The notes: generated from the letters alone by a model not told the origin. Positions 21,777 through 63,163 are shown, counted from the stretch's first letter. The stretch is DNA of 63,163 nt from a virus (IMGVR_UViG_3300037264_003470:1-63163), one strand, 5' to 3'. Made by a program: numbers and translations.

Positions 21777-23350
21777 CTATCTCCTGCCTCATATGTAAAG
21801 TTTATATTGATGTTGTCAGGTCTTATGATTTCGTTATGTTTTACTGTTACTATGTTTTCGGAAACCGTGCTGCCATCTACGGATTTATTGGTTATGAAAG
21901 ATATGTCAAAGTGATTAACTTCTTTCACTGCGGATAAGTTTTTTATCATGTCTTTTTCTTTCAAAGGCAATCCAAACTCCCACTTGTTTAGATCGAAATA
22001 TTGCTCTAGTTTTTCAGTTATCTTATTTCTTATTTCATTTTCAAATCTTTTCATTTTTTTGTTTAAATTAGCATTAACATTTATATCAACATACAACACT
22101 TCGCCGTCCTTGATACACAAATGATCTGTGAAAGTCTTTTTGTCATTGAGCATTTGAATTAACGCAGTCTTTAGGTTATCCCCAGCTTTAACTAATCTGT
22201 AATTACCTGTTTGCGCTAATATTATAATGTCGATTACGTTGCCTGCACATCCATGATTTCTCAATGATATATTAGACTTACCAACGACGCCATCGTATGA
22301 TGTTGCAAAACTGTCTGTTAAATATTTGTAGTCGGCTCCAGTGACAGCACGGTTTTGTGTTCTTAAGTAAGCTGGAAGTTTTTTCCTGATATCGTTTATG
22401 GTGTCACCAGGATAACCGTATTCGCTTTTTGTATAATTTTTAACATTTACAATAATATCATTGGATATTCCAGGTATTGCAGCAAAAACCTTTGTGTCAA
22501 AAGCGCCACTGACAATCTCAGTGGTTGATTTGTTTGGAAGTCTGAAACTAGCTTTAATGACTGAATCAGGCTGTGGAACCAGTCCAGCTTTATTGTCGCC
22601 AAATATTATAGATGGTTTATAGTAAGCATCGTATTCCACCATGTATTCAAGTTTTGGGCGCGATTCTGTAAAATGATCTACCTCAGTCCAAGGCGTATCA
22701 TTAATTGTAACCTTAATTGAACCAAAAAATACGTTTTCGAAAGGAATGGTAAAAATTTGGTTTGATTTGCCCGTGCTTTTAAATATTGTTCTTCTTGACA
22801 TTCCTTCTAGCCCTACAACAGCCTCAGTAAACATTGCACCAGCAGGGATGATTATATTAGTATCAAACACGGGGTTATTGCTCCCATCAGATGCGAATAG
22901 TTCGTAGGCAACATCAAATCCCAAACCATCCAGGTTAATTGTTATTGGCGCTCTTATGATTAAATCCTGAGAGTAAACATTGTTAACTCTAGCAAAGAAC
23001 ATTGCCTTGGCTGGCAGCGGTGGCATTGGTTTGTAACCAACTAATTTAGCTAGTCGAAAAGCATTTTCTAATTCAGTAACAGTATCAATGTAAAGCTCAT
23101 TAGCTAACTGATCTATTTTGAATGACAACATATCTGCCATTGCAGCCCAACATTCAATTAACATTATGGCCAATGAAGACTCACCTATATCATTAAAATC
23201 TTCACCAAAATTAGCCTTCAGTAAATCTAATGTTCTGGCTCTAATAGAAGAAAAATCCTGATTGGTGTAATTTACACTGTAAACAGGTAAATTATTTACA
23301 AATCTAGGTACAGCCAATGGTGTTACATCAAAAGGGCATGTTTCTGCCAT
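21773..23350 (-). CDS. baseplate wedge protein (T4 gp6 / baseplate J-like)
   Basis: NYTNQDF, LSFKIDQLANELYIDT, FGD..AG..P, QNRAVTGADY. Confidence 0.85.
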   Translation of the reverse strand: MAETCPFDVTPLAVPRFVNNLPVYSVNYTNQDFSSIRARTLDLLKANFGEDFNDIGESSLAIMLIECWAAMADMLSFKIDQLANELYIDTVTELENAFRLAKLVGYKPMPPLPAKAMFFARVNNVYSQDLIIRAPITINLDGLGFDVAYELFASDGSNNPVFDTNIIIPAGAMFTEAVVGLEGMSRRTIFKSTGKSNQIFTIPFENVFFGSIKVTINDTPWTEVDHFTESRPKLEYMVEYDAYYKPSIIFGDNKAGLVPQPDSVIKASFRLPNKSTTEIVSGAFDTKVFAAIPGISNDIIVNVKNYTKSEYGYPGDTINDIRKKLPAYLRTQNRAVTGADYKYLTDSFATSYDGVVGKSNISLRNHGCAGNVIDIIILAQTGNYRLVKAGDNLKTALIQMLNDKKTFTDHLCIKDGEVLYVDINVNANLNKKMKRFENEIRNKITEKLEQYFDLNKWEFGLPLKEKDMIKNLSAVKEVNHFDISFITNKSVDGSTVSENIVTVKHNEIIRPDNININFTYEAGDS

Positions 23351-23741
23351 CAATTCCTCCAAGAGACTTATAAACTGTTAAACTTTCAACATTGTTCACG
23401 TTAATAGGATCAATAAATAAAACAGTGATTTTAATTATCAATTTATTTTCTTCATTTCTGGCCAACTCCACAAGAATGTTTTCAACTTGAACCTTTGTTT
23501 CCCATTTTTTAATAGCACTAGCTATTTTCACTTTTAGTTCACTTTTGACCATCTCTATAGGTGCATTGAAATTGACCCTTTTTAATCCTACGCCAAAATA
23601 AGGAACAAATATTCTATCCTCTGGTTCTGTCAATATTATCGTTGCAATACTAGATTTTATTTGTGTTACATCTAATGCGGCATTATGGAAAAACCCTTGC
23701 GGGTGTTTAATAAGTGGATAAGCTATGCCTTTGTATCTCAT
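23328..23741 (-). CDS. baseplate gp25 / GPW-like protein
   Basis: IKSSIATIILTEPEDRIFVPYFGVGL...AIKKWE. Confidence 0.85.
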   Translation of the reverse strand: MRYKGIAYPLIKHPQGFFHNAALDVTQIKSSIATIILTEPEDRIFVPYFGVGLKRVNFNAPIEMVKSELKVKIASAIKKWETKVQVENILVELARNEENKLIIKITVLFIDPINVNNVESLTVYKSLGGIDGRNMPF

Positions 23742-29213: not shown

Positions 29214-32200
29214 TTAATTACCTGTAAAATCACCTACTTCAAATTCCAAACCTACCTGTCTTTCTTTCGTCGCGTTAGCCCAACCTACGGGCAAAACATC
29301 TTCCATAAATGCTTCTAATGGATAATCTGGCCCTTCGTCACCTAAGTTGTTGTTACCCTTCTTAGCCAACAGTCTTCCTATTTTGTTGAGGACTTTAACT
29401 GTTGCCATTACCCCCGCCGCAGTTGTGCCTGTATTGTTCTCTGTTTTTGCCATATCAACATCACCATTTTGAGCCTCAGCCTTATTGCGTCTAAGCTCTG
29501 CTTCCACATCCTGTGACATGCCTGCTGGCATTGTAGGATTAGCAATGATTTGCTTATCAACCAGTGGTGCTATCGTTTCTGCAAGTTGTTGACTTGACAT
29601 GCCAAACATTTTCTCCGTTATCATGTTCTTTAAAGCGGTGTCTTCAACATAAAGTGTACCCTTTTTTGTTGCCTCTTCAGTAAGAGCGTTGCTAGCCGTT
29701 GCCGCCGTTACTTGAATGTCATATGTCTTTTGAAGTATGTCTTTTATTTCGTTCAATACAGTTAATTGTAAATCTGCTGGAGTGCCAGGTGCTGGCGCAG
29801 CCGCTGCCGCCGTTGTTTGCATTTTCTTTTCTAGTAACTCTGTCGCCAACTGCATTTTTGCTAATTGCTGAGCAATATCGCCTTTTGTTGTAAGACTATT
29901 TGCCTCATCATATTGTGCCTTAAGTGCGGTCTGCTCTTTTTCACTCATCTGCTTTAGTTCTGTTATATTTTTTGCACCACTTAATTTACCTGTAATATCT
30001 TCACCAATATCTTCTGGCCTTAACATTTGTTTGAGATTACCTGCCGCCACGTCAGCCGCTACATACTTACCCTGATTCATTAACAATGGCTTTAGGAACT
30101 CAGTCTTTGCTAAATACATAGCATCTTTTACACCTGATGCTCTTTCTAGTATTGCTGTTTTTTCTTTTTCGGTTCTGGCCCCGTGGAATTGTTCTTTGAA
30201 CTTATTCATTAAACCTTTATTCAAGGTGTCCATATCTTCAAGCGTTTTCTGCTCTTTAAAAGCTTTTAATGCGTCTTTGTCTGGTGCCAAACTATATACA
30301 CCCTTCTTTGTTCTGGTGAAAGATTCGTTGAATTTATCCAGCACTTTCTCAAATGGTGCCACCCTGCCTTGCTCATCTTTAAGCATACCTTCTACTATCT
30401 TGCCTCTTGCTGCTTCATATGCGTTCAGTCTCTTGGCTTGCTCTTCAGCCATTTGCTGCGACTTTTTCAGACCTTCTTCGGTATCTGGCAGTGTTGCATA
30501 AATCTTCCACGCATCTCTGGTGGACTGATCCATTTTTTTAAACATCTCGCCAAGAGATTCGGTCTTAGCAAATTCTGCGGCAGCAGCTTTGTCTACGTCC
30601 TTAGTAGCAGCTTGCCATCGCTTGCCAGCTTCCTGAATGTTGAGCCATTGTATGTTGCCTTTTTCATCTTTTCTCTGTAAGGTTTCTCTCATTACACCAA
30701 GGATTTGTGCCTCTTTTTCTCTTAGGGCTTCTTGTTGTTTTTCAAGTTTGGGCAAAAGTGCTAAAGCCTCATCTTCTTCTTTAGTGGTGCCGTGGAAAAA
30801 CTTTGTTATGTTTACACCAGCATTGACTCTTTGTGTATGGCGACCATGAATTTCTGCCAATTCAGCTTGTAAACCTTCTGCGCCTTTTTTGGCTTCAAGT
30901 CTTGCTTGCTCATATGTTTTAGCTAATTTAATATTTGCGACTGCCATGTTTTCTGCGTATGCTTCACGATAAGCTATTTCTTGTAATCTTGATTTTTCTT
31001 CTTTTGACGTAGCATCAGCAATTGCATCAGCATGTTTCGCCATGATAATAGCTTCTTTAGCTTCCATTTCTTGTTTTTTAATGGCTATTTTTGCTTTCAT
31101 TTCTTGTTCTCTTGTGCCTGCCCCATAAAATCCAAAGGTAAGGTCTTCGACCATGCCAAACCCTGTCCCACTTTCCATTAATTTTCCTACATTTTGTGCT
31201 GCTACCAATCTTTTCTCAGCATTTTCCTTTTCTATTTTAATTTGCTCCTTAGTAAGTTCACCACTCGCCAGTTTTGTAGTTCGCTCTATTCCCTCTTTAG
31301 AAATTTCACCTCCTCTTTTTTCAATAGCTGTGCCTTGATCTTGAATACTTTTTTCTATACCTCTTATATTGTTGTGTAAAGCATATATTGCTACGCCCAA
31401 GCCAGCAAGTAGTGCTATTAAACCAGCAGCGCCTGCAAGAGCGCCAGAAACACCAGCAAATGCGGCTATTAGACCACCAACCGCCAAAAGACCAATGACA
31501 ACTAGAATGACTTCTTTCCATTCCCACAAAAACATAATTACATTGCTAATTACCCCAATAATATCTCTGATTTGTATTGCCACGTCCTTAATGCCCTTGA
31601 TAAATTCATCAAAATTGAACCCATCGAACATCTTTGCTAATTCAGGTGCATTCTTCTTTATGTACTCACCTATACCATCAAGTAGTGGCTTAGCAATAGT
31701 GGCTATGCCATTAATAATAGCGGCGAGGAATCTTTGGAAACCAGTATGAGTAGGTAAACCTTCTATTTGACCCATAGCTTTCATTATGTTGTCAGCCATG
31801 TTGCCTACAAAATCACCAAGTAATTCAAATCCTTTCTTTATATCACCTTTTGCAAAAGCATCCCAAAATGGCGCAGTTGTTAATTGCCTTATAGCTTCCG
31901 TAAGGAATGGCATCGCTTGAGCTAATTTATCTAACAAAAATCCCTTGAACCTAGCTTCAAGTCTTAATAATGCGTCTCGCATTTCTGAAATAGGATCAGC
32001 TTTCTTCTGAGCCTGTCTTTGAATACGACCCTGTAAATCAGCCAATTCTGTAGCCAATGATTTTATGGTTTTAACATCTTTCTCTGCGATAGCTTTCTTA
32101 ATTTCTTCGGCTGTAGGTACAGTCTGAGCTATTTCTGGCGCTCCTATTTTTATCGCTTCATCTCTCATTCTCTTTGCTTGGTCTAGCAAAGCTTTTTCTA

Positions 32201-35165
32201 CAGCTTCTGTGCCCTTGCCTGGGTCTGCCCCAATAGCTTTTAAATACTCTTGATAATCTTTACTTCCTTTTGCGATGTTTTCAATTGCGCCATCAAAGTC
32301 TTTTGCCCCATCTTCAACGCTGTTACTAAACTGCTGTAAGAAATCAGCGCCAGTTGTCAGGAAGAGTTGTTGTTTCTGATAAGATGCTTGTTGTGCGCTC
32401 AATTGCCCCTGCAACTGCTTTCTCATTTCTCTTGGCAAGTCACCCATGTTGAGAAGTTCATCTAAAGCTTTCGAAGTATCTGGACCTGCTTCTTTTATTG
32501 CTTTATCAAATTTTTGTCTCCATGTAAGACCATCTTTCCCAACCGCTTTTTCTTTATCGGCAATTGCTGCAAGTTCATCTATGGTCATTGCCTGAGTGCT
32601 TGTGGACTTATTCAAATCTTCAATACGCTGAGCAAATGTCTTTGATCTGTCTTTTATGTTATCAATCTCAATACGCATAGCTTCAGCACCCATTCCGAAC
32701 AATTCTTTCGTCAAATAAGACATTCTGGATATCGCTGTCGCAGAAAGCTTTTTCATGTTCTCAGCTAGCGATTTATTTGGGTCTAAAGTCTTACCTTCTG
32801 CTTGTAATGCCTGTGCTGTTTGACTCGTCAACCAACCCTCAAGGTTTTTAGCAAACTTTGCCTCAAGTTCTTTATTACCTTGTACGACACCAAATGTTAT
32901 TGCATCTTCCATTCCCTTGCCGCCGACCGCCGCCAAGTTCATTTCTTGTGGACTTAAATTACCGCGCAACCTACCACCCGACATTATTTTTGTCATTGAT
33001 TGAGCTTCTGCTTCAGTACCAGTTTTCTTAGCTCTTGCCATTGTTTCAATAAGACTTCTAGCAGCCGTCGTAGTTAGAGTTCCAGCTTTTCTCATGTCTT
33101 CCATGAATGAATGCGCTGATTTAGCAACGTTAAGTAATTCATTACCTACCAAACCTGTGCTTCTGGCGATCTGAGTCATACCTCTTTGCATACTGCGAAG
33201 ATCATTTGTGGTCATGCCTAATCTTTGGTGCCAATCCAAGAACATTTCTGAGGTTTGTTCGCCATCAGCATTAATAAGTGTTGCTGTTTGCAAACCTACT
33301 CTGGTCAATTTATTTAGAGTCTTAGTCTCTTGGACACCTTTTTTGAAGTTGGTAAGCTGTCTTTTTTGGATGGTGGTAAAACTCTGGCCAGTTTCACCTA
33401 TATCATCCATAGTTGTGCCTAATTTTTCTAATGTCCTTGAGGCGGCGTCCAGATTGCTGTTATATTCTGTTACTCGTTTAGCAATAGTAGTCCATTCATC
33501 ACCTGTTCCCTTTGGTGGCGCACCAAAACCACTCATATTTACCGTAGGGGCCATTGTGGTTGCTCCTGTCGAAACAAACATGGCTTGACTCGCGTTACTG
33601 AAGGCTTCAACCTGCTCAATAAGTGGGGTTAATACAAAATTAATCATACCTTCTGCTAAGCCACCTAAAGCAGCACCAAAAGCTTTGATTACTGGTCCTA
33701 ATGCTGAGAAAAGAGAACCTACATATGGTATTAGACCACCAAGTTTATCTGTTACATCACCAAGTAATGTGAATGGAGCTTCAACTACTTTGCCCGCAGT
33801 TTTAGCTATGCCTGTTGCTACTCCATTTAGCAAAGCTTCCATCGGTTTTTCGCTAAATACAAATCTTGATGCTGCTGAAGTGCCTTGTAATGCCCTTCCT
33901 CTGGCAGTGGCACCAATTCTTTCCCATTTTTCTCTACGCTTATCCTGCATCCATTCCCGCATCATTGCTTTTTGGGAATCTTTGCCATTCTTTTTAGTTT
34001 CTTCTACACCTTCTTTTTCCACTGCCATTTGAGCTTTCTGGCCACCCCTGTTTTTCCTGGCTTGGCTTAGCGTTGACCTTGCTGTTTGTTTTGTGTGCTT
34101 AACGCCATCCTTTGTAACTCCAAGCAGCTTGTTTATACATCTACAAATACAACGACATAAATCAGATGTACCACCACCTACTTTTGCTTTACGTCCTTTG
34201 TCAACTGGCGTTCCTTCCCCATGTGTTACTCTGCCTTTTCCAGTTAAGTCATCTATATCACTTTGAGCTTTCTTTTGTGGTTTTTCTGTAGTCTTACCCA
34301 ATTGAAGAAAATTTCTAACCGTACCACCTACAGCCTTACCTAGCGCATCAACAGAACGTCCTACAAAACCAAATACCTTGCCGACCCAACTATCTGAAAC
34401 TTTTTTCGTAAGTTTCTCCCACCAGCCAGAAACTTTATTCGTAACTCCTTCCCACAAAGCAGAAGCCTTGCTTGTAACTCCTTCCCACAAAGCAGAAGCC
34501 TTGCTTGTAACTCCTTCCCACAAAGCATTGGCTTTCTCAGAGAAGGCAGTTGTCATACGCTGCCAACCATCTTTAAAGAAAGTCATAGTTGTGTTCCATC
34601 CACTGCGGAACATGTTTTGAGATTCTTTAGCAGCCTTCTCTCCCTCTTTCTGAAACCACTTAAAAGGATTTAGTTTCCCTAGATTACCAAAAGTTTTTGT
34701 GAAGTCCTTGCCGATCATGCCAAAAGCAGCACTAAATCTTCTTTGACTCTTTTCCAAAGCCTTGCCAAAGGTCATTGTTTTATCGGTGATTTTCTCAAAT
34801 GCTGGTTTAATTTCGCTAAAGGTGTCTTTAATTACTTTTGATATGTCACCACCATTGCCTGGCTTTAATGCTTTGGCAACTGCCTTAGCATAAGCTTTTG
34901 CCTGCTTATCTATTTGCTGGCCTTTTTTACTTATAGCTTCTTCACAACACTCTGCTACTCGTTTGATTAACTTGTTAAGAGCTTTTAATTCTCTGTCAAG
35001 ATCATTGCCAATAATCTTTTCTAGATTATCATTGAGTTTTTTAAGCTCCGCAGTATTTTCATCTTTTTTTTGCGCAGTCTTTTTGTTGCCAACATCACCA
35101 AGTAATGCTGCTTTAATTTCATCAATACTAGCTTTTACCTCACGATCAAATACATCGACTGGCAT
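29214..35165 (-). CDS. tail tape measure protein
   Basis: 1983 aa, helical A/K/E-rich, 11-aa W/F-spaced repeats (SKASALWEGVT), hydrophobic segment, upstream of baseplate genes. Confidence 0.85.
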   Translation of the reverse strand: MPVDVFDREVKASIDEIKAALLGDVGNKKTAQKKDENTAELKKLNDNLEKIIGNDLDRELKALNKLIKRVAECCEEAISKKGQQIDKQAKAYAKAVAKALKPGNGGDISKVIKDTFSEIKPAFEKITDKTMTFGKALEKSQRRFSAAFGMIGKDFTKTFGNLGKLNPFKWFQKEGEKAAKESQNMFRSGWNTTMTFFKDGWQRMTTAFSEKANALWEGVTSKASALWEGVTSKASALWEGVTNKVSGWWEKLTKKVSDSWVGKVFGFVGRSVDALGKAVGGTVRNFLQLGKTTEKPQKKAQSDIDDLTGKGRVTHGEGTPVDKGRKAKVGGGTSDLCRCICRCINKLLGVTKDGVKHTKQTARSTLSQARKNRGGQKAQMAVEKEGVEETKKNGKDSQKAMMREWMQDKRREKWERIGATARGRALQGTSAASRFVFSEKPMEALLNGVATGIAKTAGKVVEAPFTLLGDVTDKLGGLIPYVGSLFSALGPVIKAFGAALGGLAEGMINFVLTPLIEQVEAFSNASQAMFVSTGATTMAPTVNMSGFGAPPKGTGDEWTTIAKRVTEYNSNLDAASRTLEKLGTTMDDIGETGQSFTTIQKRQLTNFKKGVQETKTLNKLTRVGLQTATLINADGEQTSEMFLDWHQRLGMTTNDLRSMQRGMTQIARSTGLVGNELLNVAKSAHSFMEDMRKAGTLTTTAARSLIETMARAKKTGTEAEAQSMTKIMSGGRLRGNLSPQEMNLAAVGGKGMEDAITFGVVQGNKELEAKFAKNLEGWLTSQTAQALQAEGKTLDPNKSLAENMKKLSATAISRMSYLTKELFGMGAEAMRIEIDNIKDRSKTFAQRIEDLNKSTSTQAMTIDELAAIADKEKAVGKDGLTWRQKFDKAIKEAGPDTSKALDELLNMGDLPREMRKQLQGQLSAQQASYQKQQLFLTTGADFLQQFSNSVEDGAKDFDGAIENIAKGSKDYQEYLKAIGADPGKGTEAVEKALLDQAKRMRDEAIKIGAPEIAQTVPTAEEIKKAIAEKDVKTIKSLATELADLQGRIQRQAQKKADPISEMRDALLRLEARFKGFLLDKLAQAMPFLTEAIRQLTTAPFWDAFAKGDIKKGFELLGDFVGNMADNIMKAMGQIEGLPTHTGFQRFLAAIINGIATIAKPLLDGIGEYIKKNAPELAKMFDGFNFDEFIKGIKDVAIQIRDIIGVISNVIMFLWEWKEVILVVIGLLAVGGLIAAFAGVSGALAGAAGLIALLAGLGVAIYALHNNIRGIEKSIQDQGTAIEKRGGEISKEGIERTTKLASGELTKEQIKIEKENAEKRLVAAQNVGKLMESGTGFGMVEDLTFGFYGAGTREQEMKAKIAIKKQEMEAKEAIIMAKHADAIADATSKEEKSRLQEIAYREAYAENMAVANIKLAKTYEQARLEAKKGAEGLQAELAEIHGRHTQRVNAGVNITKFFHGTTKEEDEALALLPKLEKQQEALREKEAQILGVMRETLQRKDEKGNIQWLNIQEAGKRWQAATKDVDKAAAAEFAKTESLGEMFKKMDQSTRDAWKIYATLPDTEEGLKKSQQMAEEQAKRLNAYEAARGKIVEGMLKDEQGRVAPFEKVLDKFNESFTRTKKGVYSLAPDKDALKAFKEQKTLEDMDTLNKGLMNKFKEQFHGARTEKEKTAILERASGVKDAMYLAKTEFLKPLLMNQGKYVAADVAAGNLKQMLRPEDIGEDITGKLSGAKNITELKQMSEKEQTALKAQYDEANSLTTKGDIAQQLAKMQLATELLEKKMQTTAAAAAPAPGTPADLQLTVLNEIKDILQKTYDIQVTAATASNALTEEATKKGTLYVEDTALKNMITEKMFGMSSQQLAETIAPLVDKQIIANPTMPAGMSQDVEAELRRNKAEAQNGDVDMAKTENNTGTTAAGVMATVKVLNKIGRLLAKKGNNNLGDEGPDYPLEAFMEDVLPVGWANATKERQVGLEFEVGDFTGN
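34441..34526. repeat. 33-bp tandem repeat (2.6 copies) in tape measure
   Basis: gtaactccttcccacaaagcagaagccttgctt. Confidence 0.9.
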
Positions 35166-56623: not shown

Positions 56624-57115
56624 TTACCATATTTCTATTTCTTTGGATAGTGATGGTGTCGGCTGATCTACTGGTCTACTAATTACTGCTGGTCTTGGCT
56701 CATCTATATTTCTAACACGCGGTACTTTCGCCGCGTTTGGATTGTAACGACGATTTGGTATAAAAACCATATTATTACGGTCGATAACGCCGACGATTTG
56801 AGTATTAGGGACAAAGTTTTGTGGGGCGTTGGCGCGGTGTTTACGATGATGGTCATACGGCATGTCAATCAAGAGAACATGATCGCCAAAATGAGAGCGA
56901 TTAAATGGCCCCGTATTCCCTGATTGAACCAGATTAGTAATATCATTATTATTAGAGAAAGAATCAGTAGTCGAATCCAAAGCTTTATATAAGAACGGTT
57001 GCCCTTGTAAAAACCTTTTAGCTATATTTTCAGATGTGAAGTGTGTTAAACGAATCATATCTGGTGGAATAGACGGCAATTGAAGTTGAGATTCTAACCA
57101 TAATCTAAAGTTCAT
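56624..57115 (-). CDS. hypothetical protein, possible internal virion protein
   Basis: N-terminus MNFRLWLES. Confidence 0.7.
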   Translation of the reverse strand: MNFRLWLESQLQLPSIPPDMIRLTHFTSENIAKRFLQGQPFLYKALDSTTDSFSNNNDITNLVQSGNTGPFNRSHFGDHVLLIDMPYDHHRKHRANAPQNFVPNTQIVGVIDRNNMVFIPNRRYNPNAAKVPRVRNIDEPRPAVISRPVDQPTPSLSKEIEIW

Positions 57116-57116
57116 A

Positions 57117-57347
57117 TTATTGCCCCATCATTCCGTGTTTTTGAAATAACGCTATTACTTGCCTATTCATGGTTTGTGCTACATTCATTAACTCCCCTTT
57201 TAATTGCGGATTTTGAATTTGACTTGCCGCACGCATAAGCCCACTCTGAGCCTGCCCAAATTGCTGAATATCTGGACCTATCTGACCAGGCTGTTGCTGG
57301 CCTAATACTTCATCTTTTCTTGTTATAAACTTATTAAACTTTTCCAT
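57117..57347 (-). CDS. Gln-rich small protein
   Basis: N-terminus MEKFNKFI; TATATA 4 nt upstream. Confidence 0.65.
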   Translation of the reverse strand: MEKFNKFITRKDEVLGQQQPGQIGPDIQQFGQAQSGLMRAASQIQNPQLKGELMNVAQTMNRQVIALFQKHGMMGQ

Positions 57348-57621
57348 TAAATATATAATGTCTTGGTGTATAATAAAAAATTGGCGGCGGCGATTTTTGG
57401 AAAATGGAAAAATTAGTTTTTTTAGATATGTGTGTGGAAATTGAAAAATCCCTGGCGTGGAATTTTGAAATTGATTCTTTAAAAGAACTAACTGGTATTG
57501 CGTCCACGGTAGGCTCCCCTATGTTACTTTTTTAAACAGAAAATGAAATTAATTTCTCCTTTCTTAATTATGTTAGTACAACCTCAATAGCAATTCAATG
57601 GGCATGGGCGATGCCCCCACG

Positions 57622-57747
57622 TTAGCACGTTGCCATACGCTTGCACCAGCGTAGGCTGCGCCACTTGCCATACCACGCAAGGCGTGCTTGCGTCTTGAAG
57701 CGGCGTGCCCGCTTGCTCCCGTCCACGATGCAGCTTGACTTCTTCAT
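57622..57747 (-). CDS. array cassette: 41-aa basic peptide
   Basis: MKKSSCIVDG...RMATC*, GGAGG SD, fills one repeat slot. Confidence 0.6.
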   Translation of the reverse strand: MKKSSCIVDGSKRARRFKTQARLAWYGKWRSLRWCKRMATC

Positions 57748-57804
57748 AGGGGTATCCTCCTACCCCATTCAGTACAACCGCAATTAGAGGTTCATTAGTA
57801 AAAA

Positions 57805-57828
57805 GGGCAGGGTTGCGGTCCCCTGCCC
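57805..57828 (-). terminator. type-A array hairpin (representative copy)
   Basis: GGGCAGGG-ttgcggtc-CCCTGCCC with adjacent A-run (U-tract on the minus strand); related copies near 58141, 60117, 61326, 61640, 62515, 62796. Confidence 0.75.
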
Positions 57829-57843
57829 TTACCCCTAACGTTG

Positions 57844-58065
57844 TTACGCGGCGTCCAGCAACTCCATGCCGAATTCGACGGCTTCCTTCGCTTCGCGGAG
57901 GCCGATGCCCGTCTGCGTGCGGAGGTGCTTGATCGCCATGATCTTCTTTTCGTGGAGGTCCACGCCGAAGTCGCGGAGCATCTTGAGCATCTTGAGGGCC
58001 GCGCGGGTGTCGCGGATCATTTCGTCGCGGGCCGACAGGGGCGGGTTGTAACCAGTGCTGTTCAT
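57844..58065 (-). CDS. array cassette: ribosomal protein L7/L12 C-terminal-domain-like protein
   Basis: KKIMAIKHLRTQTGIGLREAKEAVE matches the L12 CTD KI.AIK..R..TGLGL.EAK..VE motif. Confidence 0.8.
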   Translation of the reverse strand: MNSTGYNPPLSARDEMIRDTRAALKMLKMLRDFGVDLHEKKIMAIKHLRTQTGIGLREAKEAVEFGMELLDAA

Positions 58066-58172
58066 CGTTCGTCTCCAGAAAGGGGTGATCGTCGCTACAC
58101 TGTAATTAGTACAACCTCAATTAGAGGTTCATTAGAGAAAGGGCAGGGTTGCGGTCCCCTGCCCGTCTCGCC

Positions 58173-58619
58173 TTAGTCGAGTAAGGCGGCGACTTCGCAG
58201 CAGACAAAACCGCAGTCGATTGCTACTGCCATCGGCAGCGCCAGTAGCAACGGGCTTCCCGTCAGTGCAGCGATGGACAAGGAACAGTGCCAAACCGATA
58301 GCGCCAGCAGGCCAACGCCAACGCAAGCCGTGAGGATTGCTGCCCTGCGCTGGCCGCGCTTGTAAAGCAGACTGGCCACCTTGCCCAACACGAGGATGAT
58401 GACGGGGACGATGAGGCCCATGCCCCAACCCGCCCAACCGATTTCCGCGTGCTGCGCGTTGGCGTAGCCGTTCAGCAGCGCCGACAAGATCGCCATGATG
58501 ACAACGCCAGCGTTGGCGTAAGCCGTCAAGTGATCGCCCTTCACAGCGACGGGCTTGGCCTTGCGAGCGGGCTTGCGGGCGGGCTTGGCGTCGGTCAGCT
58601 TCAGTGCAGTGGCGTTCAT
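58173..58619 (-). CDS. array cassette: 4-TM membrane protein
   Basis: four hydrophobic segments, basic N-terminus; GGAG SD. Confidence 0.8.
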   Translation of the reverse strand: MNATALKLTDAKPARKPARKAKPVAVKGDHLTAYANAGVVIMAILSALLNGYANAQHAEIGWAGWGMGLIVPVIILVLGKVASLLYKRGQRRAAILTACVGVGLLALSVWHCSLSIAALTGSPLLLALPMAVAIDCGFVCCEVAALLD

Positions 58620-58687
58620 CGCAGTTCTCCGTAAGGGGTGACTCGTCCTACACCTGATTTAGTACAACCTCAATTAGAGGTTAATTA

Positions 58688-58703
58688 GGGAGTGGGCGCT
58701 CCC
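58688..58703 (-). terminator. type-B array hairpin (representative copy)
   Basis: GGGAG-tgggcg-CTCCC; related copies near 59017, 60463, 60720, 60964, 62015, 63146. Confidence 0.55.
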
Positions 58704-58709
58704 TTCCCC

Positions 58710-58949
58710 TTAGTATTCGTCCACCTCTTGCCAGTCGTCGCCACGGTAGTCGGGGCCGTCGTCCTCATCGGCGTCATCGGGCCGACACGTCGCGCAGATC
58801 GCCTTGAACGTTTCCCACGTCACGCGCTCGCCGCTCTCGCCAATGCGGAGGTAAGTGGGGCGCGGCCCACTGTAGTTGCGCATCTCCTCCAGCGTGAACA
58901 CCGCACGACTGAACTCGCCAGCGCCGTTGTCAACGTACAGTGCGAACAT
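58710..58949 (-). CDS. array cassette: hypothetical, acidic tail
   Basis: fills repeat slot, GGAG SD. Confidence 0.75.
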   Translation of the reverse strand: MFALYVDNGAGEFSRAVFTLEEMRNYSGPRPTYLRIGESGERVTWETFKAICATCRPDDADEDDGPDYRGDDWQEVDEY

Positions 58950-59038
58950 GTCAGGCTCCGTAAGGGGTGATCGTCGTTACAACCCAATTAGTACAACCTC
59001 AATTAGAGGCTGATTAGGGAGTGGGCGCTCCCTTCCCC

Positions 59039-59404
59039 TTAACTCCAGTGTAGTCCTCCCGTCAGCGCCACGTCCACGCCGATCCCGTTCGCCTGCAACA
59101 AGCGGGCCGCGCGGCTGAGGTCGTCCTCATGGCCAGCGCAGTCTTCCCCGATCCCGTCCACGGGACGGAACTTCCCCCAGCCGAACGTGAGGAAGCCGTC
59201 CAAGTCCCCGATGGGGCCGTCGCTATCGCGCTCCTTCCACTGGCGATAGCCGTCCTCATACTCATTCCAGGCAGTCGCCGCAGCGCGTTCGGCATCGTGC
59301 CGCTTGGCCATTTCGGTCATGCGGTCGTGCGTGCCGCTGGGGACGCGAGCCAGGACTTCCAAGGCGGCGCGGTCGGTCGTGTTCGGATAGAGGCGGGTTC
59401 CCAT
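59039..59404 (-). CDS. array cassette: hypothetical
   Basis: 121 aa, fills repeat slot, GGAG SD. Confidence 0.8.
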   Translation of the reverse strand: MGTRLYPNTTDRAALEVLARVPSGTHDRMTEMAKRHDAERAAATAWNEYEDGYRQWKERDSDGPIGDLDGFLTFGWGKFRPVDGIGEDCAGHEDDLSRAARLLQANGIGVDVALTGGLHWS

Positions 59405-59696
59405 CGTCAGACTCCAGTAAGGGGTGATCGTCGCTACAACCCAATTAGTACAACCTTGATTAGAGGTTCATTAGGGAGGAACGGCTGGACGGCGCAAAGT
59501 CGGTCGAGGTTCGAGGTTAAAATGGCCCGTAATCGCGCCAGGATCGCTTGAGACGAGCGCAAACGGGTCGAGGCTATGTCGGGTCGGTTTTAGGTTTGGA
59601 GGGCTTAAAAGCGATTTAATCGCATTCCAGGCTGGCGCTAGTTTGTACACTATAAATTGGCATTAAATGAGGTTGTACTGATATTAAATTGGTAAT

Positions 59697-59721
59697 AAAA
59701 AACCCACCCTTGCGGGTGGGC
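59697..59721 (-). terminator. rho-independent terminator
   Basis: minus strand CCCACCC-GCAA-GGGTGGG followed by T6. Confidence 0.85.
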
Positions 59722-59729
59722 TGTGTCGG

Positions 59730-60044
59730 TCAAACCTCGACCGTTTCCTGCCCGTTGGCGATACGGGCAAGCTGGCCAGCGTACTTGTGCAGCATACGGC
59801 GGGCTGCGCCAAGCTGATTGACAGACAACGGGCAAGGATAGCGCGGGTCGGGTCGGAGGCACTTCTGCGCCAAGTCGGAACCGAACTTGGCATCCCTGTA
59901 ATTGAAGCCGCGCCCGTTGTCGTGCTTGGTGGTTTCGTCGCTTTTCTCGTCCTCGGTCTGGCGCTCGTACAGGACGACAAGAGCGCGGTAGACGGCCTTG
60001 GGGTTGTTGGCCAGCAGCACGCGGATGGATTCGGTAGTGTGCAT
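59730..60044 (-). CDS. array cassette: phage-type hypothetical protein
   Basis: NGRGFN.RDA...LS..Q...AR..L.KYAGQL; GGAG SD. Confidence 0.8.
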   Translation of the reverse strand: MHTTESIRVLLANNPKAVYRALVVLYERQTEDEKSDETTKHDNGRGFNYRDAKFGSDLAQKCLRPDPRYPCPLSVNQLGAARRMLHKYAGQLARIANGQETVEV

Positions 60045-60149
60045 CGCGGTACTCCGTAAGGGGTGATCTTCACTACACCCCGATTAGTACAACCGCAATG
60101 ATCCTGTAATGGGAAAGGGCAGGGTTGCGGTCCCCTGCCTTCCCTGGAG

Positions 60150-60395
60150 TTACTCGTCGTACTTGCCGTGATACTGGCGGTCGCTCACCTTGCGGTCGAG
60201 GTTGCGACCGATGCCGCGCGATTCGGGCCGCTTGGCAGGCGGGTCGCAATCGGCGCAGGCGCTCTTGTGTTCGTTGTAGGCGCTCCAGAAAGCGTGCTTG
60301 CAAGAGCAGCAAAGCCGCTGCACCAGGATAGCGCCGCCCGTCGTCTTGCGGGACGCGATGACCTCACCGACGCCGACTTGGACCAGAGCGTTCAT
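60150..60395 (-). CDS. array cassette: zinc-ribbon protein
   Basis: start moved to MNALVQV (AAGGAG SD); CCSC..CADC. Confidence 0.75.
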   Translation of the reverse strand: MNALVQVGVGEVIASRKTTGGAILVQRLCCSCKHAFWSAYNEHKSACADCDPPAKRPESRGIGRNLDRKVSDRQYHGKYDE

Positions 60396-60486
60396 GCGAT
60401 GCTCCTTGAAAGGGGTGATGTTCGCTACACCAGGATTAGTACAACCGCAATGATCCTGTAATGGGAGTGGGCGCACTCCCTCGGTG

Positions 60487-60672
60487 TTACTCCGCTTTCC
60501 AGCGGCGGGCCTTGCGTGCGGCCTTGATGCGGCGGCGCTCCCTGCGCTTGTCAGCAGCAGCGGCCATACCGATCTGATCCTCGATGCGGAACAGGTTGCC
60601 GCGTTCGGGCGCAGGGCCGAGCTTGATGGTGAAGCCCTTGTCATTGCGGCGGATTGCGGTTGTCTGGTGCAT
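60487..60672 (-). CDS. array cassette: basic small protein
   Basis: AAGGAG SD, Arg-rich C-terminus. Confidence 0.7.
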   Translation of the reverse strand: MHQTTAIRRNDKGFTIKLGPAPERGNLFRIEDQIGMAAAADKRRERRRIKAARKARRWKAE

Positions 60673-60741
60673 GATTGTTCTCCTTACTCTATTTAGTACA
60701 ACCGCAATGATCTTGTAATGGGAGTGGGCGCTCCCTTGCTG

Positions 60742-60915
60742 TTAGCAGACCTGATACTCATGTCCGTTCACAGTCAAGACGCCGCCGAAGAACGTCCACG
60801 TCGGTTCGCTGGTCAGCGCAGCTTCATGCGCCGCAAGCAATTGCTCCATGTCCTCCTCGATCTGTTGCTTGCTCAGACTCTGGCCGCTACGGTCGGTTGC
60901 GTTCAGAATGGTCAT
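60742..60915 (-). CDS. array cassette: 57-aa hypothetical
   Basis: MTILNATDRS...HEYQVC*, AAGGAGG SD. Confidence 0.7.
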   Translation of the reverse strand: MTILNATDRSGQSLSKQQIEEDMEQLLAAHEAALTSEPTWTFFGGVLTVNGHEYQVC

Positions 60916-60985
60916 GCTTCCCTCCTTGCTCCAATCAGTACAACCTCGATTAGAGGATGATTAGGGAGTGGGCGCTCCCTTCCCC

Positions 60986-61261
60986 TTAGTCCTGGGTGCG
61001 GCAGTAGCACTTGTAGGGCTTGTTATCGGGGCCGTAGACGACGAGGTTGAAAGACGAGCCACTGCCGTCTTCTCTCTGAATGCTGGACAGGATGCAAGGG
61101 ATGCCATTGATGCTGATGCCGCCCTTGCATCCGCTGGCCGTGAGCGCGTTGAACAGGGTGAACTTGGTCATCGGCGTGGCACAACGCATCAAGCGCTGTT
61201 CCATCGTCAAGTCGAGCGTGGCAGTGGCAGAGCGCCGAGTCGAGAGAGTCCCTTGCAGCAT
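60986..61261 (-). CDS. array cassette: hypothetical
   Basis: 91 aa, GGAGG SD. Confidence 0.75.
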   Translation of the reverse strand: MLQGTLSTRRSATATLDLTMEQRLMRCATPMTKFTLFNALTASGCKGGISINGIPCILSSIQREDGSGSSFNLVVYGPDNKPYKCYCRTQD

Positions 61262-61359
61262 GACAGCCTCCAGTTAGGGTTATCGTTACACTTCATTTAG
61301 TACAACCTTAATTAGAGGATAAAAAGGCAGGGTTTGCGTTCCCCTGCCCACCCCTAACG

Positions 61360-61563
61360 TTATGCTACCATGTCTTTGAGTTGTTCGCTCTGGCTCTTGG
61401 CGTGGTTGAACGGGACCAGATAGAACCCGTGCGGGATGACGTGGCCAAGCCAGAACAATTCGCCGCCGCGCCAGACCAGCATCAGCTTCCCCCGCTTGGC
61501 ATGGGAATAGGTGAAGTCGTCAGCAAGGACGCGGGCCAACTGGCGAGAGATGTAGGTTCGCAT
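61360..61563 (-). CDS. array cassette: hypothetical
   Basis: start moved to MRTYISRQ (GGAG SD). Confidence 0.75.
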   Translation of the reverse strand: MRTYISRQLARVLADDFTYSHAKRGKLMLVWRGGELFWLGHVIPHGFYLVPFNHAKSQSEQLKDMVA

Positions 61564-61666
61564 CGCAGTTCTCCGTAAGGGGTGATGTTGGCTACACACA
61601 AATTAGTACAACCTTAATTACAGGATGATAACAAAAAAAGGCAGGGGTTTCCCCCTGCCCTATTGT

Positions 61667-61945
61667 TTACGCGGCCTTGACCGCGAGGAGCGTGTCGAGC
61701 GGCGACTGCCCCTCGAAGTCGGCCAGGTAGGAAATGGGGTTCATCTTCCGCGCCTCCTGCGCCTTGTTCTTGCTCAAGCCCGTCTTGGCGACGACCTCCT
61801 TGACGGACAAGAGCCGACGCATCAGCGGGCCGATGACGGGCTTGCCCTTGTCGGACGGCACCGTGGGATTGTCCACGATGCGGGACACCTTCAGACCGTT
61901 CTCGATGCGGGACAGCAGGACCACCGTGACGTTGAGCAGCTTCAT
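61667..61945 (-). CDS. array cassette: hypothetical, possible HTH-like segment
   Basis: LSVKEVVAKTGLSKN; GGAG SD. Confidence 0.75.
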   Translation of the reverse strand: MKLLNVTVVLLSRIENGLKVSRIVDNPTVPSDKGKPVIGPLMRRLLSVKEVVAKTGLSKNKAQEARKMNPISYLADFEGQSPLDTLLAVKAA

Positions 61946-62036
61946 CGCGTTACTCCAGAAAGGGGTGATGTTCGTTACAACCCAATTAGTACAACCTTGA
62001 TTAAGGGATCATTAGGGAGTGGGCGCTCCCTGTCCC

Positions 62037-62225
62037 TTATTCCCAATACGTCCCTCCCAGCGCTCCGCGCACCTTGACCAGACCAGCGGAGCGGAGCGCA
62101 TCTTCGCGTGCCTTGCGTGACGCATTCCGCTTGTCCCGCTTGCGCTTGCCTTCGTCGCAATCGCGGCAGAGGTTGTCGCCGTCAGCCGTGGCAATCTCGC
62201 AGCCGCATTTCTCGCAAACCTTCAT
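62037..62225 (-). CDS. array cassette: zinc-ribbon protein
   Basis: CEKC..CRDC; GGAGG SD. Confidence 0.75.
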   Translation of the reverse strand: MKVCEKCGCEIATADGDNLCRDCDEGKRKRDKRNASRKAREDALRSAGLVKVRGALGGTYWE

Positions 62226-62294
62226 GGTCGCCTCCAGTGTTAGGGTTATACCACAATTAGTACAACCTTAATTAGAGGAAGATTGGGCGCTCCC

Positions 62295-62468
62295 TTAGCG
62301 TGGTTCAACTTTGGTATAGTGCCAAAAGTGGCGGATTGTGCCGTCCCGTCTCGCATCGTCCAGGCGCTTTACCTCTTCGTCGGCCCGTTCTTTGGTCCAA
62401 ACGACCTTGACAACGGTGATAGCACCGTCTTGAAAATGATGCCGAACAACCGCGAATGCGTCATCCAT
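62295..62468 (-). CDS. array cassette: 57-aa hypothetical
   Basis: MDDAFAVV...TKVEPR*, AGGGGA SD. Confidence 0.65.
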   Translation of the reverse strand: MDDAFAVVRHHFQDGAITVVKVVWTKERADEEVKRLDDARRDGTIRHFWHYTKVEPR

Positions 62469-62543
62469 TGTTTCCCCTTTGTAGGTCTAGTACAACCTTA
62501 ATTAGAGGAAGATTGGCAGGGTTTGCGGTCCCCTGCCCACCCC

Positions 62544-62735
62544 TTACTTGACGTACTCTTTGCTTTCGCCCGTCTTGATGCTGACGACCTCGTACTTGCG
62601 CTGAATGAGGTCTTTCAGGGTTTGCGGGTGAACGCCCGCCATGCTGCGGATGACGACGGTGAATTCCTGCACCGCATGGTCGAGGGTGACGGTCTTTCCA
62701 TCGGTCAGCTTCTCGCCGTAGAGGTGAATCATCAT
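62544..62735 (-). CDS. array cassette: hypothetical
   Basis: 63 aa, GGAG SD. Confidence 0.75.
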   Translation of the reverse strand: MMIHLYGEKLTDGKTVTLDHAVQEFTVVIRSMAGVHPQTLKDLIQRKYEVVSIKTGESKEYVK

Positions 62736-62824
62736 GGCACTTCTCCAGTGTTAGGGTTATACCTCAATTAGTACAACCTTAATTAGAGGAAGATTGGCAG
62801 GGTTTGCGGTCCCCTGCCTTCCCC

Positions 62825-63085
62825 TTAGTGCGGCACCGTTGCGAGCAGCTTTTGCAACTTCTCTTTCTGTTTCCAGTGTTCCGCGTTCCAGATGTTCTCA
62901 TTCAGAGCGCGGCGGATGCGGTCGCGTATCTCTCGCGTCTTGTAAGCGTAAGAGCATTCCGCCCACATCTCTTCCGCGAAGTCGAGCAGCGTCAGCGCCT
63001 CCTCGTACTTCTCCGCGTTGCAGAGGTCCAGAATGCGGTCCTTCTGGCGAACAAGCAGATTGTCCAGAGCGTATTCAGCGATCAT
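62825..63085 (-). CDS. array cassette: hypothetical helical protein
   Basis: 86 aa, GGAGG SD. Confidence 0.75.
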   Translation of the reverse strand: MIAEYALDNLLVRQKDRILDLCNAEKYEEALTLLDFAEEMWAECSYAYKTREIRDRIRRALNENIWNAEHWKQKEKLQKLLATVPH

Positions 63086-63163
63086 GGTCGCCTCCAGGGT
63101 TAGGGTTATACACCAATTAGTACAACCTTAATTAGAGGATAATTAGGGAGTGGGCGCTCCCTT

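Follow-up and report, generated by a model that had tools for sequence, protein, structure and literature searches.

At one end of IMGVR_UViG_3300037264_003470, a viral DNA of 63,163 nucleotides (nt) analyzed over its whole length (hereafter the window, or G000), small genes follow one another on the minus strand, and each is preceded by a copy of a repeat with the core GGTTGTACT. What does a repeat placed before every gene do? We think it probable that repeat and gene together form a single-gene expression unit that shuffles in the manner of the promoter-plus-stem-loop (PeSL) cassettes, in an uncultivated huge phage, and that the repeat carries a phage-specific promoter used by the host RNA polymerase with a phage sigma factor. 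An earlier reading of the locus (the original prediction) had proposed a plug-in platform for gene expression and gene capture. That reading got most of the architecture right, but the region does not form a self-contained platform for capture: it is the end of a promoter regulon that extends across the clade.

Exact matches to the core number 18 in the window, 17 on the minus strand and one on the plus strand (59671-59679). All lie within 57575-63127 and none in the remaining 57 kb; the chance expectation is 0.21, and none of 100 shuffles reached 18. A 12-mer searched with up to two mismatches gave 13 matches in the AT-rich 57 kb, which is chance level (14.5 are expected for the whole window). 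Between the copies stand 16 minus-strand open reading frames (ORFs) of 41-148 amino acids, as originally predicted, and exact matching confirms that the core is invariant in its 17 co-oriented copies, to which the inverted copy is added. The array continues past the end of the window, an IMG/VR record cut off within it, so the 16 cassettes (earlier "16+") are a lower bound. The G+C content (GC) is 0.55-0.60 at 58-63 kb versus 0.34-0.47 in the rest of the window, so the contrast noted earlier is upheld by measurement.

The intergenic modules measure 69-107 nt, plus one of 325 nt, by arithmetic on the ORF coordinates. They read, in order, stop codon, GC-rich hairpin, 10-25 nt, motif, leader of 20-50 nt, Shine-Dalgarno (SD) sequence of the GGAG type, and ATG. 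By folding, a GC hairpin lies directly 3' of the stop codon in 15 of 16 3' regions; these hairpins are of two sequence types, GGGAGCGCCCACTCCC and GGCAGGGGACCGCAA(A)CCCTGCC, with energies of -8 to -30 kcal/mol. Hairpins in the leader are weak and differ from module to module, and only some are stable (-13 to 0 kcal/mol). Thus, the layout proposed earlier stands in the order of its parts, but its "usual" leader hairpin is stable in some modules only. In several cassettes (for example, at 58974-58985, 59431-59442 and 61972-61983), half of the motif recurs in degenerate form, as GGGTTGTAACGA or GGGTTGTAGCGA, 14 nt downstream of the core and contributes to the leader hairpin, which is variable.

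G001, an IMG/VR record of 159,507 bp that came up in a pattern scan, is rich in core copies: 94 forward and one reverse at 11.86-95.17 kb, and none in 95.2-159.5 kb. The consensus over 110 sites is tAATTGaGGTTGTACTAAtt. The window aligns with G001 149468-89266 at 76-90% identity. This synteny, together with the range of the copies in G001, makes the array in the window the terminal 5.6 kb of a region, at least 84 kb long, in which the copies are co-oriented; what had appeared to be a discrete island of 16 genes is the distal end of that putative promoter regulon. In G001, GC is 0.43-0.45, rises to 0.59 toward 95 kb, and is then 0.38-0.40, and motif copies also precede larger genes, such as one for a DUF932 protein. 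The other multi-copy contigs among the matches listed in pattern scans of IMG/VR and metagenomes were 98.6-100% identical to G001; the remaining matches listed were single copies per locus, except for four loci with two. A DNA search of the array against 50,697 GenBank phages gave no match.

Among GenBank records, the nearest is LR756511.1 (W01), which comes from an uncultured phage, is 595,163 bp long and has a baseplate protein matching at 64.5% at the amino acid level; we take it to belong to the 2020 survey of huge phages. W01 has no copy of GGTTGTACT. Its most over-represented words are TAAAGCTGTACT and relatives, and its variant of the motif is AAAGCTGTACTAA. The word AGCTGTAC occurs there in 55 forward copies at 0.7-19.2 kb, about one per 300 bp, and in 73 further reverse copies spread over 19-293 kb; the two oppositely oriented gene blocks each have co-oriented copies. 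The dense stretch has a GC of 0.50-0.52 versus 0.41-0.43 elsewhere. G001 and W01 are syntenic over about 200 kb, except that the dense array block is in the opposite orientation. Further relatives, traced through the DUF932 protein inside the array, carry the variants AATTGCAATTGTACCA (G002 and G003), AGCTTAGTTGTACCAAT (G004, 390 kb and 98% complete) and CTTAGCTGTACCAAG (G005, 373 kb); those of G002 and G004 are concentrated in arrays of 30-60 kb with raised GC. TGTACYAA is common to all lineage variants, and alignment of the sites on TGTAC reveals in each lineage a single contiguous conserved block of 16-19 nt whose last bases are TGTACYAA; no further block lies upstream of it. The system is therefore clade-wide in huge phages, with relatives of 340-595 kb. 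The features of the array in the window, from its outer end inward, are as follows (percentages are amino acid identities).

62825-63127, minus strand: cassette W0; core 63119-63127; ORF 62825-63085, 86 amino acids; orthologues in G001 (88%), G002 (64%) and G004 (45%); dN/dS 0.12
62544-62778, minus strand: cassette W1; core 62770-62778; ORF 62544-62735, 63 amino acids; orthologue in G001 (87%); dN/dS 0.20
62295-62497, minus strand: cassette W2; core 62489-62497; ORF 62295-62468, 57 amino acids; unique to the window, with no homologue in G001, G002, G004 or W01
62037-62267, minus strand: cassette W3; core 62259-62267; ORF 62037-62225, 62 amino acids, Cys-rich; orthologue in G001 (92%); dN/dS 0.17
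61667-61996, minus strand: cassette W4; core 61988-61996; ORF 61667-61945, 92 amino acids; dN/dS 0.54; G+C at third codon positions (GC3) 0.96
61360-61613, minus strand: cassette W5, preceded by a T-run hairpin at 61638-61661; core 61605-61613; ORF 61360-61563, 67 amino acids; orthologues in G001 and G002
60986-61307, minus strand: cassette W6; core 61299-61307; ORF 60986-61261, 91 amino acids; orthologues in G001, G002, G004 and W01; dN/dS 0.23
60742-60945, minus strand: cassette W7; core 60937-60945; ORF 60742-60915, 57 amino acids; absent at the matching position of G001, with relatives (41-47%) elsewhere in the arrays of G001, G002, G004 and W01
60487-60703, minus strand: cassette W8; core 60695-60703; ORF 60487-60672, 61 amino acids
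60150-60446, minus strand: cassette W9; core 60438-60446; ORF 60150-60401, 83 amino acids
59730-60094, minus strand: cassette W10; core 60086-60094; ORF 59730-60044, 104 amino acids; 11 metagenome homologues
59456-59729, no strand assigned: non-coding gap of 274 nt with a T-run hairpin and the single inverted motif copy
59039-59455, minus strand: cassette W11; core 59447-59455; ORF 59039-59404, 121 amino acids; 13 homologues, one of them (77%) on a 596,617-bp contig
58710-58998, minus strand: cassette W12; core 58990-58998; ORF 58710-58949, 79 amino acids; dN/dS 0.08
58173-58669, minus strand: cassette W13; core 58661-58669; ORF 58173-58619, 148 amino acids
57844-58116, minus strand: cassette W14; core 58108-58116; ORF 57844-58065, 73 amino acids; at a different array position in G001
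57622-57779, minus strand: cassette W15; core 57771-57779; ORF 57622-57747, 41 amino acids; lost in G001, with orthologues in G002 (63%), W01 and G004
57394-57616, minus strand: last motif copy, facing the first AT-rich genes, and the junction of GC-rich and AT-rich DNA; core 57575-57583

All 13 orthologous pairs have dN/dS of 0.08-0.54, with dS of 0.17-0.87 and GC3 of 0.73-0.96. Because the dN/dS values are this low in every pair, the cassette ORFs are real genes under purifying selection. Pfam names no family for 15 of the 16; the exception is W14, with a partial match to the C-terminal domain of ribosomal protein L7/L12 (PF00542, 27.4 bits versus a cut-off of 25.9). The ORFs are not all orphans, since six have orthologues in further relatives and W13 has 146 homologues. 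W13 is predicted to be a four-helix membrane protein of a widespread family that has no Pfam name; its AlphaFold model consists of four long helices, with a predicted local distance difference test score (pLDDT) of 73.

In the non-coding gap between W10 and W11, the T-run hairpin (59701-59722, minus strand) is strong and like an intrinsic terminator, and the inverted motif copy on the plus strand is overlapped by the only sigma70-like site of the array (59657-59685, plus strand). The arrangement is kept in G001, whose single reverse copy lies at 92977. No Rfam family was found in the gap, where a search with E values up to 1 gave only sub-threshold, terminator-like matches. The inverted copy points back at the 3' end of W10, and the gap may yield an antisense or small RNA.

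Motif sites followed within 150 nt downstream by an SD sequence, a start codon and an ORF of 30 or more amino acids number 77 of 95 in G001, 17 of 18 in the window and, in W01, 85 of 134; at random positions the share is 20-25%. The distances from motif to start codon peak at 20-50 nt. A scan of the array for the sigma70 consensus gave no site on the cassette strand and one on the plus strand, versus 2.5 in shuffles; the core is not a sigma70 promoter, in agreement with the earlier statement that it matches no sigma70 -10 element. A simple k-mer search of the AT-rich part of G001 produced no convincing candidate for a distinct late-promoter motif. A literature search on promoter motifs of huge phages, on phages of Planctomycetes and on promoter mapping in Planctomycetes, with supplements outside its reach, returned nothing that describes the motif or the array, and no paper naming LR756511 turned up.

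Phage sigma cascades with phage-specific promoter classes are established for SPO1 (gp28 and gp33/34) and T4 (gp55). W01 encodes three proteins of the sigma-70 family, of 165, 333 and 186 amino acids; G004 has orthologues of all three and G005 of the 165-residue protein. The 165-residue sigma has regions 2 and 4 and is nearest to the FliA/WhiG type, and the other two match region 2 only. A near-consensus sigma70 promoter precedes the gene of the 165-residue sigma in three genomes (TTGCAT-17-TATAAC in W01, TTGACT-17-TATACT in G004 and TTGACA-17-TATTAT in G005), so this sigma is plausibly made first. The gene of the 333-residue sigma is preceded in W01 and G004 by the lineage's own motif. The likeness to the SPO1 and T4 cascades thus lies in phage sigma-70-family genes unaccompanied by a phage polymerase, in a promoter class distinct from the host consensus, and in the placement of the sigma genes, one preceded by a host-type promoter and one by the phage-type motif; the difference is that the motif here has no visible -35 block. 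A 2026 review describes jumbo phages lacking an RNA polymerase as often encoding sigma homologues thought to steer the host polymerase to phage promoters (PMC13282480). Because the relatives have no detectable phage polymerase and conserve three sigma genes, we infer that the host polymerase with a phage sigma reads the motif. If so, the cassettes, which were originally supposed to encode effectors of early host takeover, would be a delayed-early or middle class and not immediate-early.

Comparison of the window with G001 reveals turnover of single cassettes. By blastp and blastn, the collinear orthologues are W0=G76, W1=G77, W3-W6=G79-G82, W8=G83, W9=G84, W10=G86 and W11-W13=G88-G90, where G76 and the numbers following it are cassettes of G001. 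In our tally, 11 cassettes keep their order, one is translocated, and three are unique to each side (W2, W7 and W15 in the window; G78, G87 and G91 in G001). The same slot holds unrelated genes in the case of W2 and G78 (85 amino acids). At the slot of W7, G001 91570-91637 aligns to the modules that flank W7 on both sides. The translocated cassette is G85 (at 92224), between G84 and G86, whose orthologue W14 (85% amino acid identity) follows W13. At the slot of W15, G001 has two motif copies 65 nt apart (95098 and 95163), and because W15 is present in G002, G004 and W01, its absence from G001 is a loss. The order of the shared cassettes in G002 is W7, W0, W5, W6, W8, W15, so W7 has moved there too. 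All break points between the window and G001 fall inside the repeat modules, with the flanking modules aligning on both sides, and they are spread through the modules and not fixed at one position. Compared over 109 nt, modules share 70-91% identity with their positional orthologues, and 6 of 13 are closer to a non-orthologous G001 module, which fits exchange among modules. Cassette order differs among relatives, and, in line with the gain and loss of genes between repeats that was inferred originally, the differences comprise replacement, insertion or deletion, and movement; as to capture of genes from elsewhere, one cassette family (W13), shared with genomes of Planctomycetes, gives a hint.

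These observations suggest the following scheme. The array would be the distal, densest part of the hyperplastic region of an uncultivated huge phage. In each module, the GC-rich hairpin would end or stabilize the upstream message. Next would come a contiguous phage-specific promoter of 16-19 bp (here TAATTGAGGTTGTACTAAT, with the invariant TGTACYAA common to the clade), then a short leader, the SD sequence and the start codon, and transcription would start a few bases downstream of TGTACTAA. Host RNA polymerase with a phage sigma would read the motif in a cascade that passes from host sigma to phage sigma to the motif class, with one sigma gene, behind the host-type promoter, expressed first and another controlled by the motif itself. 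Because the modules are roughly 100 nt long and 70-90% alike, they could act as portable homology, and homologous recombination between them would delete, insert, replace and move single cassettes.

Several points weigh against this scheme. Neither the window nor G001, both fragments, contains a sigma gene, so the link to sigma factors is drawn from the relatives. A separate -35-like block is absent in four lineages, and none is found 15-17 nt upstream in G002, G004 or W01. Only about three hairpins have a U-run and most have none; therefore, in the proposed set of promoter, ribosome-binding site and terminator for each gene, the promoter-like repeat, the SD sequence and the hairpin are present, but a terminator role for the hairpin is not established. 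Pieces of the array occur at 100% identity in metatranscriptome contigs (runs X2-X4, from another study), and some of these contigs cross the motif and hairpin (59012-59570 and 61882-62126). The evidence of recombination comes from two genomes plus looser differences of order in G002, and the joints seen in the contigs of a DNA run have sides of 20-30 nt within repeats, count as repeat artefacts and were used neither for nor against excised cassette circles.

A sigma with regions 2 and 4 would not usually read a single-block motif, which argues somewhat against that sigma; such a motif is more typical of single-subunit polymerases or of sigmas that recognize only a -10 element. The region-2-only sigmas (186 and 333 amino acids) are possible readers. 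The same architecture keeps in play an unrecognized RNA polymerase encoded by the phage, single-subunit or otherwise non-canonical, for which the motif would be the promoter. Promoters of single-subunit polymerases in the T7 group are contiguous, about 20 bp long, nearly invariant, placed before many genes, and lineage-specific at certain positions. The motif shares with them a single, almost invariant block of 16-19 bp in four lineages, with an upstream half that is lineage-specific, and it may resemble the promoters of T3, K11 and SP6 (AATTA...ACTA). However, a search for the T7-type polymerase family PF00940 detected nothing in the 595-kb W01, G001 or the window, a weak negative because no control genome was positive. 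PF00562 was likewise absent from these three, and PF00623 from these three and from G004 and G002. We therefore regard a phage-encoded polymerase as an unlikely reader of the motif.

About equally improbable, in our estimate, is that the motif acts in RNA, as a processing site or 5' untranslated element in long polycistronic transcripts whose hairpins serve as 3' stabilizers after cleavage. The RNA-library contigs that cross hairpin and motif, the scarcity of U-runs, and a spacing of only 10-25 nt between hairpin and motif would all suit such a role. The contigs, though, give no starts, ends or strand and cannot distinguish read-through from DNA carry-over; they provide no cover over 56800-57012, and we used them neither for nor against transcription. 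Moreover, the conserved inverted copy (59671; 92977 in G001) lies on an otherwise gene-free strand with no upstream transcript to feed it, the two opposite gene blocks of W01 each have co-oriented copies out to 293 kb, and no candidate for a sequence-specific RNase was identified.

The array also resembles an integron in its tandem single-gene cassettes, whose content differs between relatives, so the repeats might be sites at which a dedicated site-specific recombination system captures genes. This is very unlikely. Tyrosine recombinases (PF00589) were found in none of five records (the window, G001, G002, G004 and W01, one of them 98% complete and one 595 kb long), whereas 14 of 14 controls were positive, which bears out the lack of an integrase noted earlier and argues against an integron. 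A promoter-like motif and an SD sequence belong to every cassette, unlike the promoterless cassettes of integrons, further copies stand before large conserved core genes over 84-290 kb, and the break points are scattered through the modules. Least credible of all is that the array was joined to AT-rich phage DNA by chimeric assembly, for which the sharp GC step at 57.4-57.6 kb and an array depth about twice that of the junction contig might be cited, because synteny with the independently assembled G001 continues across the step (window 57394-57616 versus G001 95130-95352, 89.7% identity), G002, G004 and W01 have like architecture, and a Logan contig of a DNA run (X1) spans 56800-57830 with no differences; contrary to the doubt first raised about 57.4-57.7 kb, a chimera is refuted to the extent that two assemblies and one bridging contig allow.

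In run X1, the mean depth of unique array unitigs is 110-142, and that of the contig over the junction and the AT-rich side is 62. This change in depth, at about 57.8 kb within the array, could reflect GC bias, a co-occurring strain that shares the array, or a long terminal repeat. CheckV estimates of completeness conflict, at 12% for the 63-kb window and 79% for the 159.5-kb G001. Synteny with relatives of 390-595 kb and the W11 homologue on the 596.6-kb contig suggest a true genome of several hundred kb. The AT-rich part of the window (1-57000) resembles a tail module. PHROGs and Pfam named few of the large ORFs; those of this part include the following.

10524-14627, minus strand: large ORF of 1367 amino acids with a long internal tandem-repeat region
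21773-23362: baseplate wedge/J protein
29214-35165: tape-measure-like ORF of 1983 amino acids
39328-40935: tRNA nucleotidyltransferase

No PHROG family matched the 1367-residue ORF, whose tandem repeats appear as many offset blastn alignments to G001 over 11.2-13.5 kb.

The cassettes also differ from the rest of the genome in codon usage. The GC3 profile was taken from motif-anchored ORFs; a greedy longest-ORF profile is confounded by spurious antisense ORFs in GC-rich DNA. In G001, GC3 of the motif-anchored ORFs is about 0.5 at 10-70 kb and 0.82 at 90-95 kb, and long ORFs overall have a GC3 of 0.32-0.42 in four genomes. Orthologues of W0, W5, W6, W7, W8 and W15 have a GC3 of 0.42-0.83 in every lineage, even at 41-71% amino acid identity, so the bias is being maintained and was not left behind by a recent transfer. 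Possible causes are host-like codons used before phage tRNAs accumulate, or GC-biased conversion in a recombining array. W01 has 63 tRNA genes and G004 has 48. One tRNA of each set has the anticodon CTA and would read TAG; in the window, translation by the standard code is clean.

A GC-rich host is hinted at by the W13 family, which among 185,579 species genomes is found only in four metagenome-assembled genomes (MAGs) of Planctomycetes (Gemmata, Frigoriglobus and Planctomycetales), at loci of 56-70% GC. The four MAGs gave no match to W11. When 20 kb of window DNA was compared with 201 genomes of the family of a Gemmata MAG (G007), weak similarity to the W13 gene and one 29-nt match were all that appeared. 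We did not use the latter match as evidence of the host: it agrees at 28 of 29 positions (window 59534-59562; locus L235 of the Gemmataceae genome G024), lies outside an array of clustered regularly interspaced short palindromic repeats (CRISPR), and is of borderline significance over 201 genomes. On a Planctomycetales MAG contig (L229), the 10.3 kb around the W13 homologue has a different co-oriented repeat with GACACCCGC (mostly cTGACACCCGC), in 13 copies in 10 kb and mostly 40-60 nt upstream of small-gene start codons. Apparently this is another array with a promoter for each gene, unrelated to the first, in the planctomycete genome or in an element within it.

A more speculative proposal, which we put forward only tentatively, is that this clade of 340-600 kb phages, possibly infecting GC-rich Planctomycetes (Gemmataceae), runs two translation regimes, with GC3-rich cassettes translated on host tRNAs and AT-rich late genes on the 48-63 phage tRNAs. 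The dozens to more than 100 single-gene units, shuffling and under lineage-specific sigma-dependent promoters, may have host-like codons for immediate translation. Their high GC3 may be actively maintained for this reason, or may instead result from recombination-linked GC-biased conversion in a repeat-dense array.

The closest known system is the PeSL cassette. As two reports describe it, recombination between promoter and stem-loop modules deletes, inserts and replaces genes without known relatives (ORFans), and there are about 50 PeSL copies per T4-type genome (PMC2839356, PMC4122927). As in PeSLs of RB49 and phi1, the intergenic modules are composites that run from stop codon through stem-loop, promoter and SD sequence to start codon, and they precede small genes, mostly without an assigned function, in hyperplastic regions. 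Insertions, deletions and replacements between relatives are bounded by the modules, whose approximately 100 nt of shared sequence could support homologous recombination. The PeSL promoter, however, has the host sigma70 consensus and is early, whereas the promoter here does not have this consensus, is contiguous over 16-19 bp and varies among lineages. Copies are more numerous here (94 or more in G001 and, in W01, about 130 matches to an 8-mer), the phages are of 340-595 kb and not established as T4-type, the cassettes have a GC3 of 0.73-0.96 in a genome with a GC3 of about 0.35, and the system is known from sequence alone. The precedent originally cited thus matches in its modules and in the rearrangements that they bound, but not in its sigma70 promoter; even so, the two appear to work alike.

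These findings extend the PeSL idea from T4-type phages to uncultivated huge phages, on a larger scale and with a promoter that is apparently specified by the phage. The motif is also a handle for annotation, in that a scan with the variant of a given lineage marks transcription units and the hyperplastic region. Its variants (for example, GGTTGTACTAA versus AATTGTACCAA), together with the conserved sigma genes, are candidate orthogonal sigma-promoter pairs. Finally, a stable GC3 difference of about 0.4 between gene classes of one phage genome is unusual, and it makes a link among codon usage, timing of expression and tRNAs testable.

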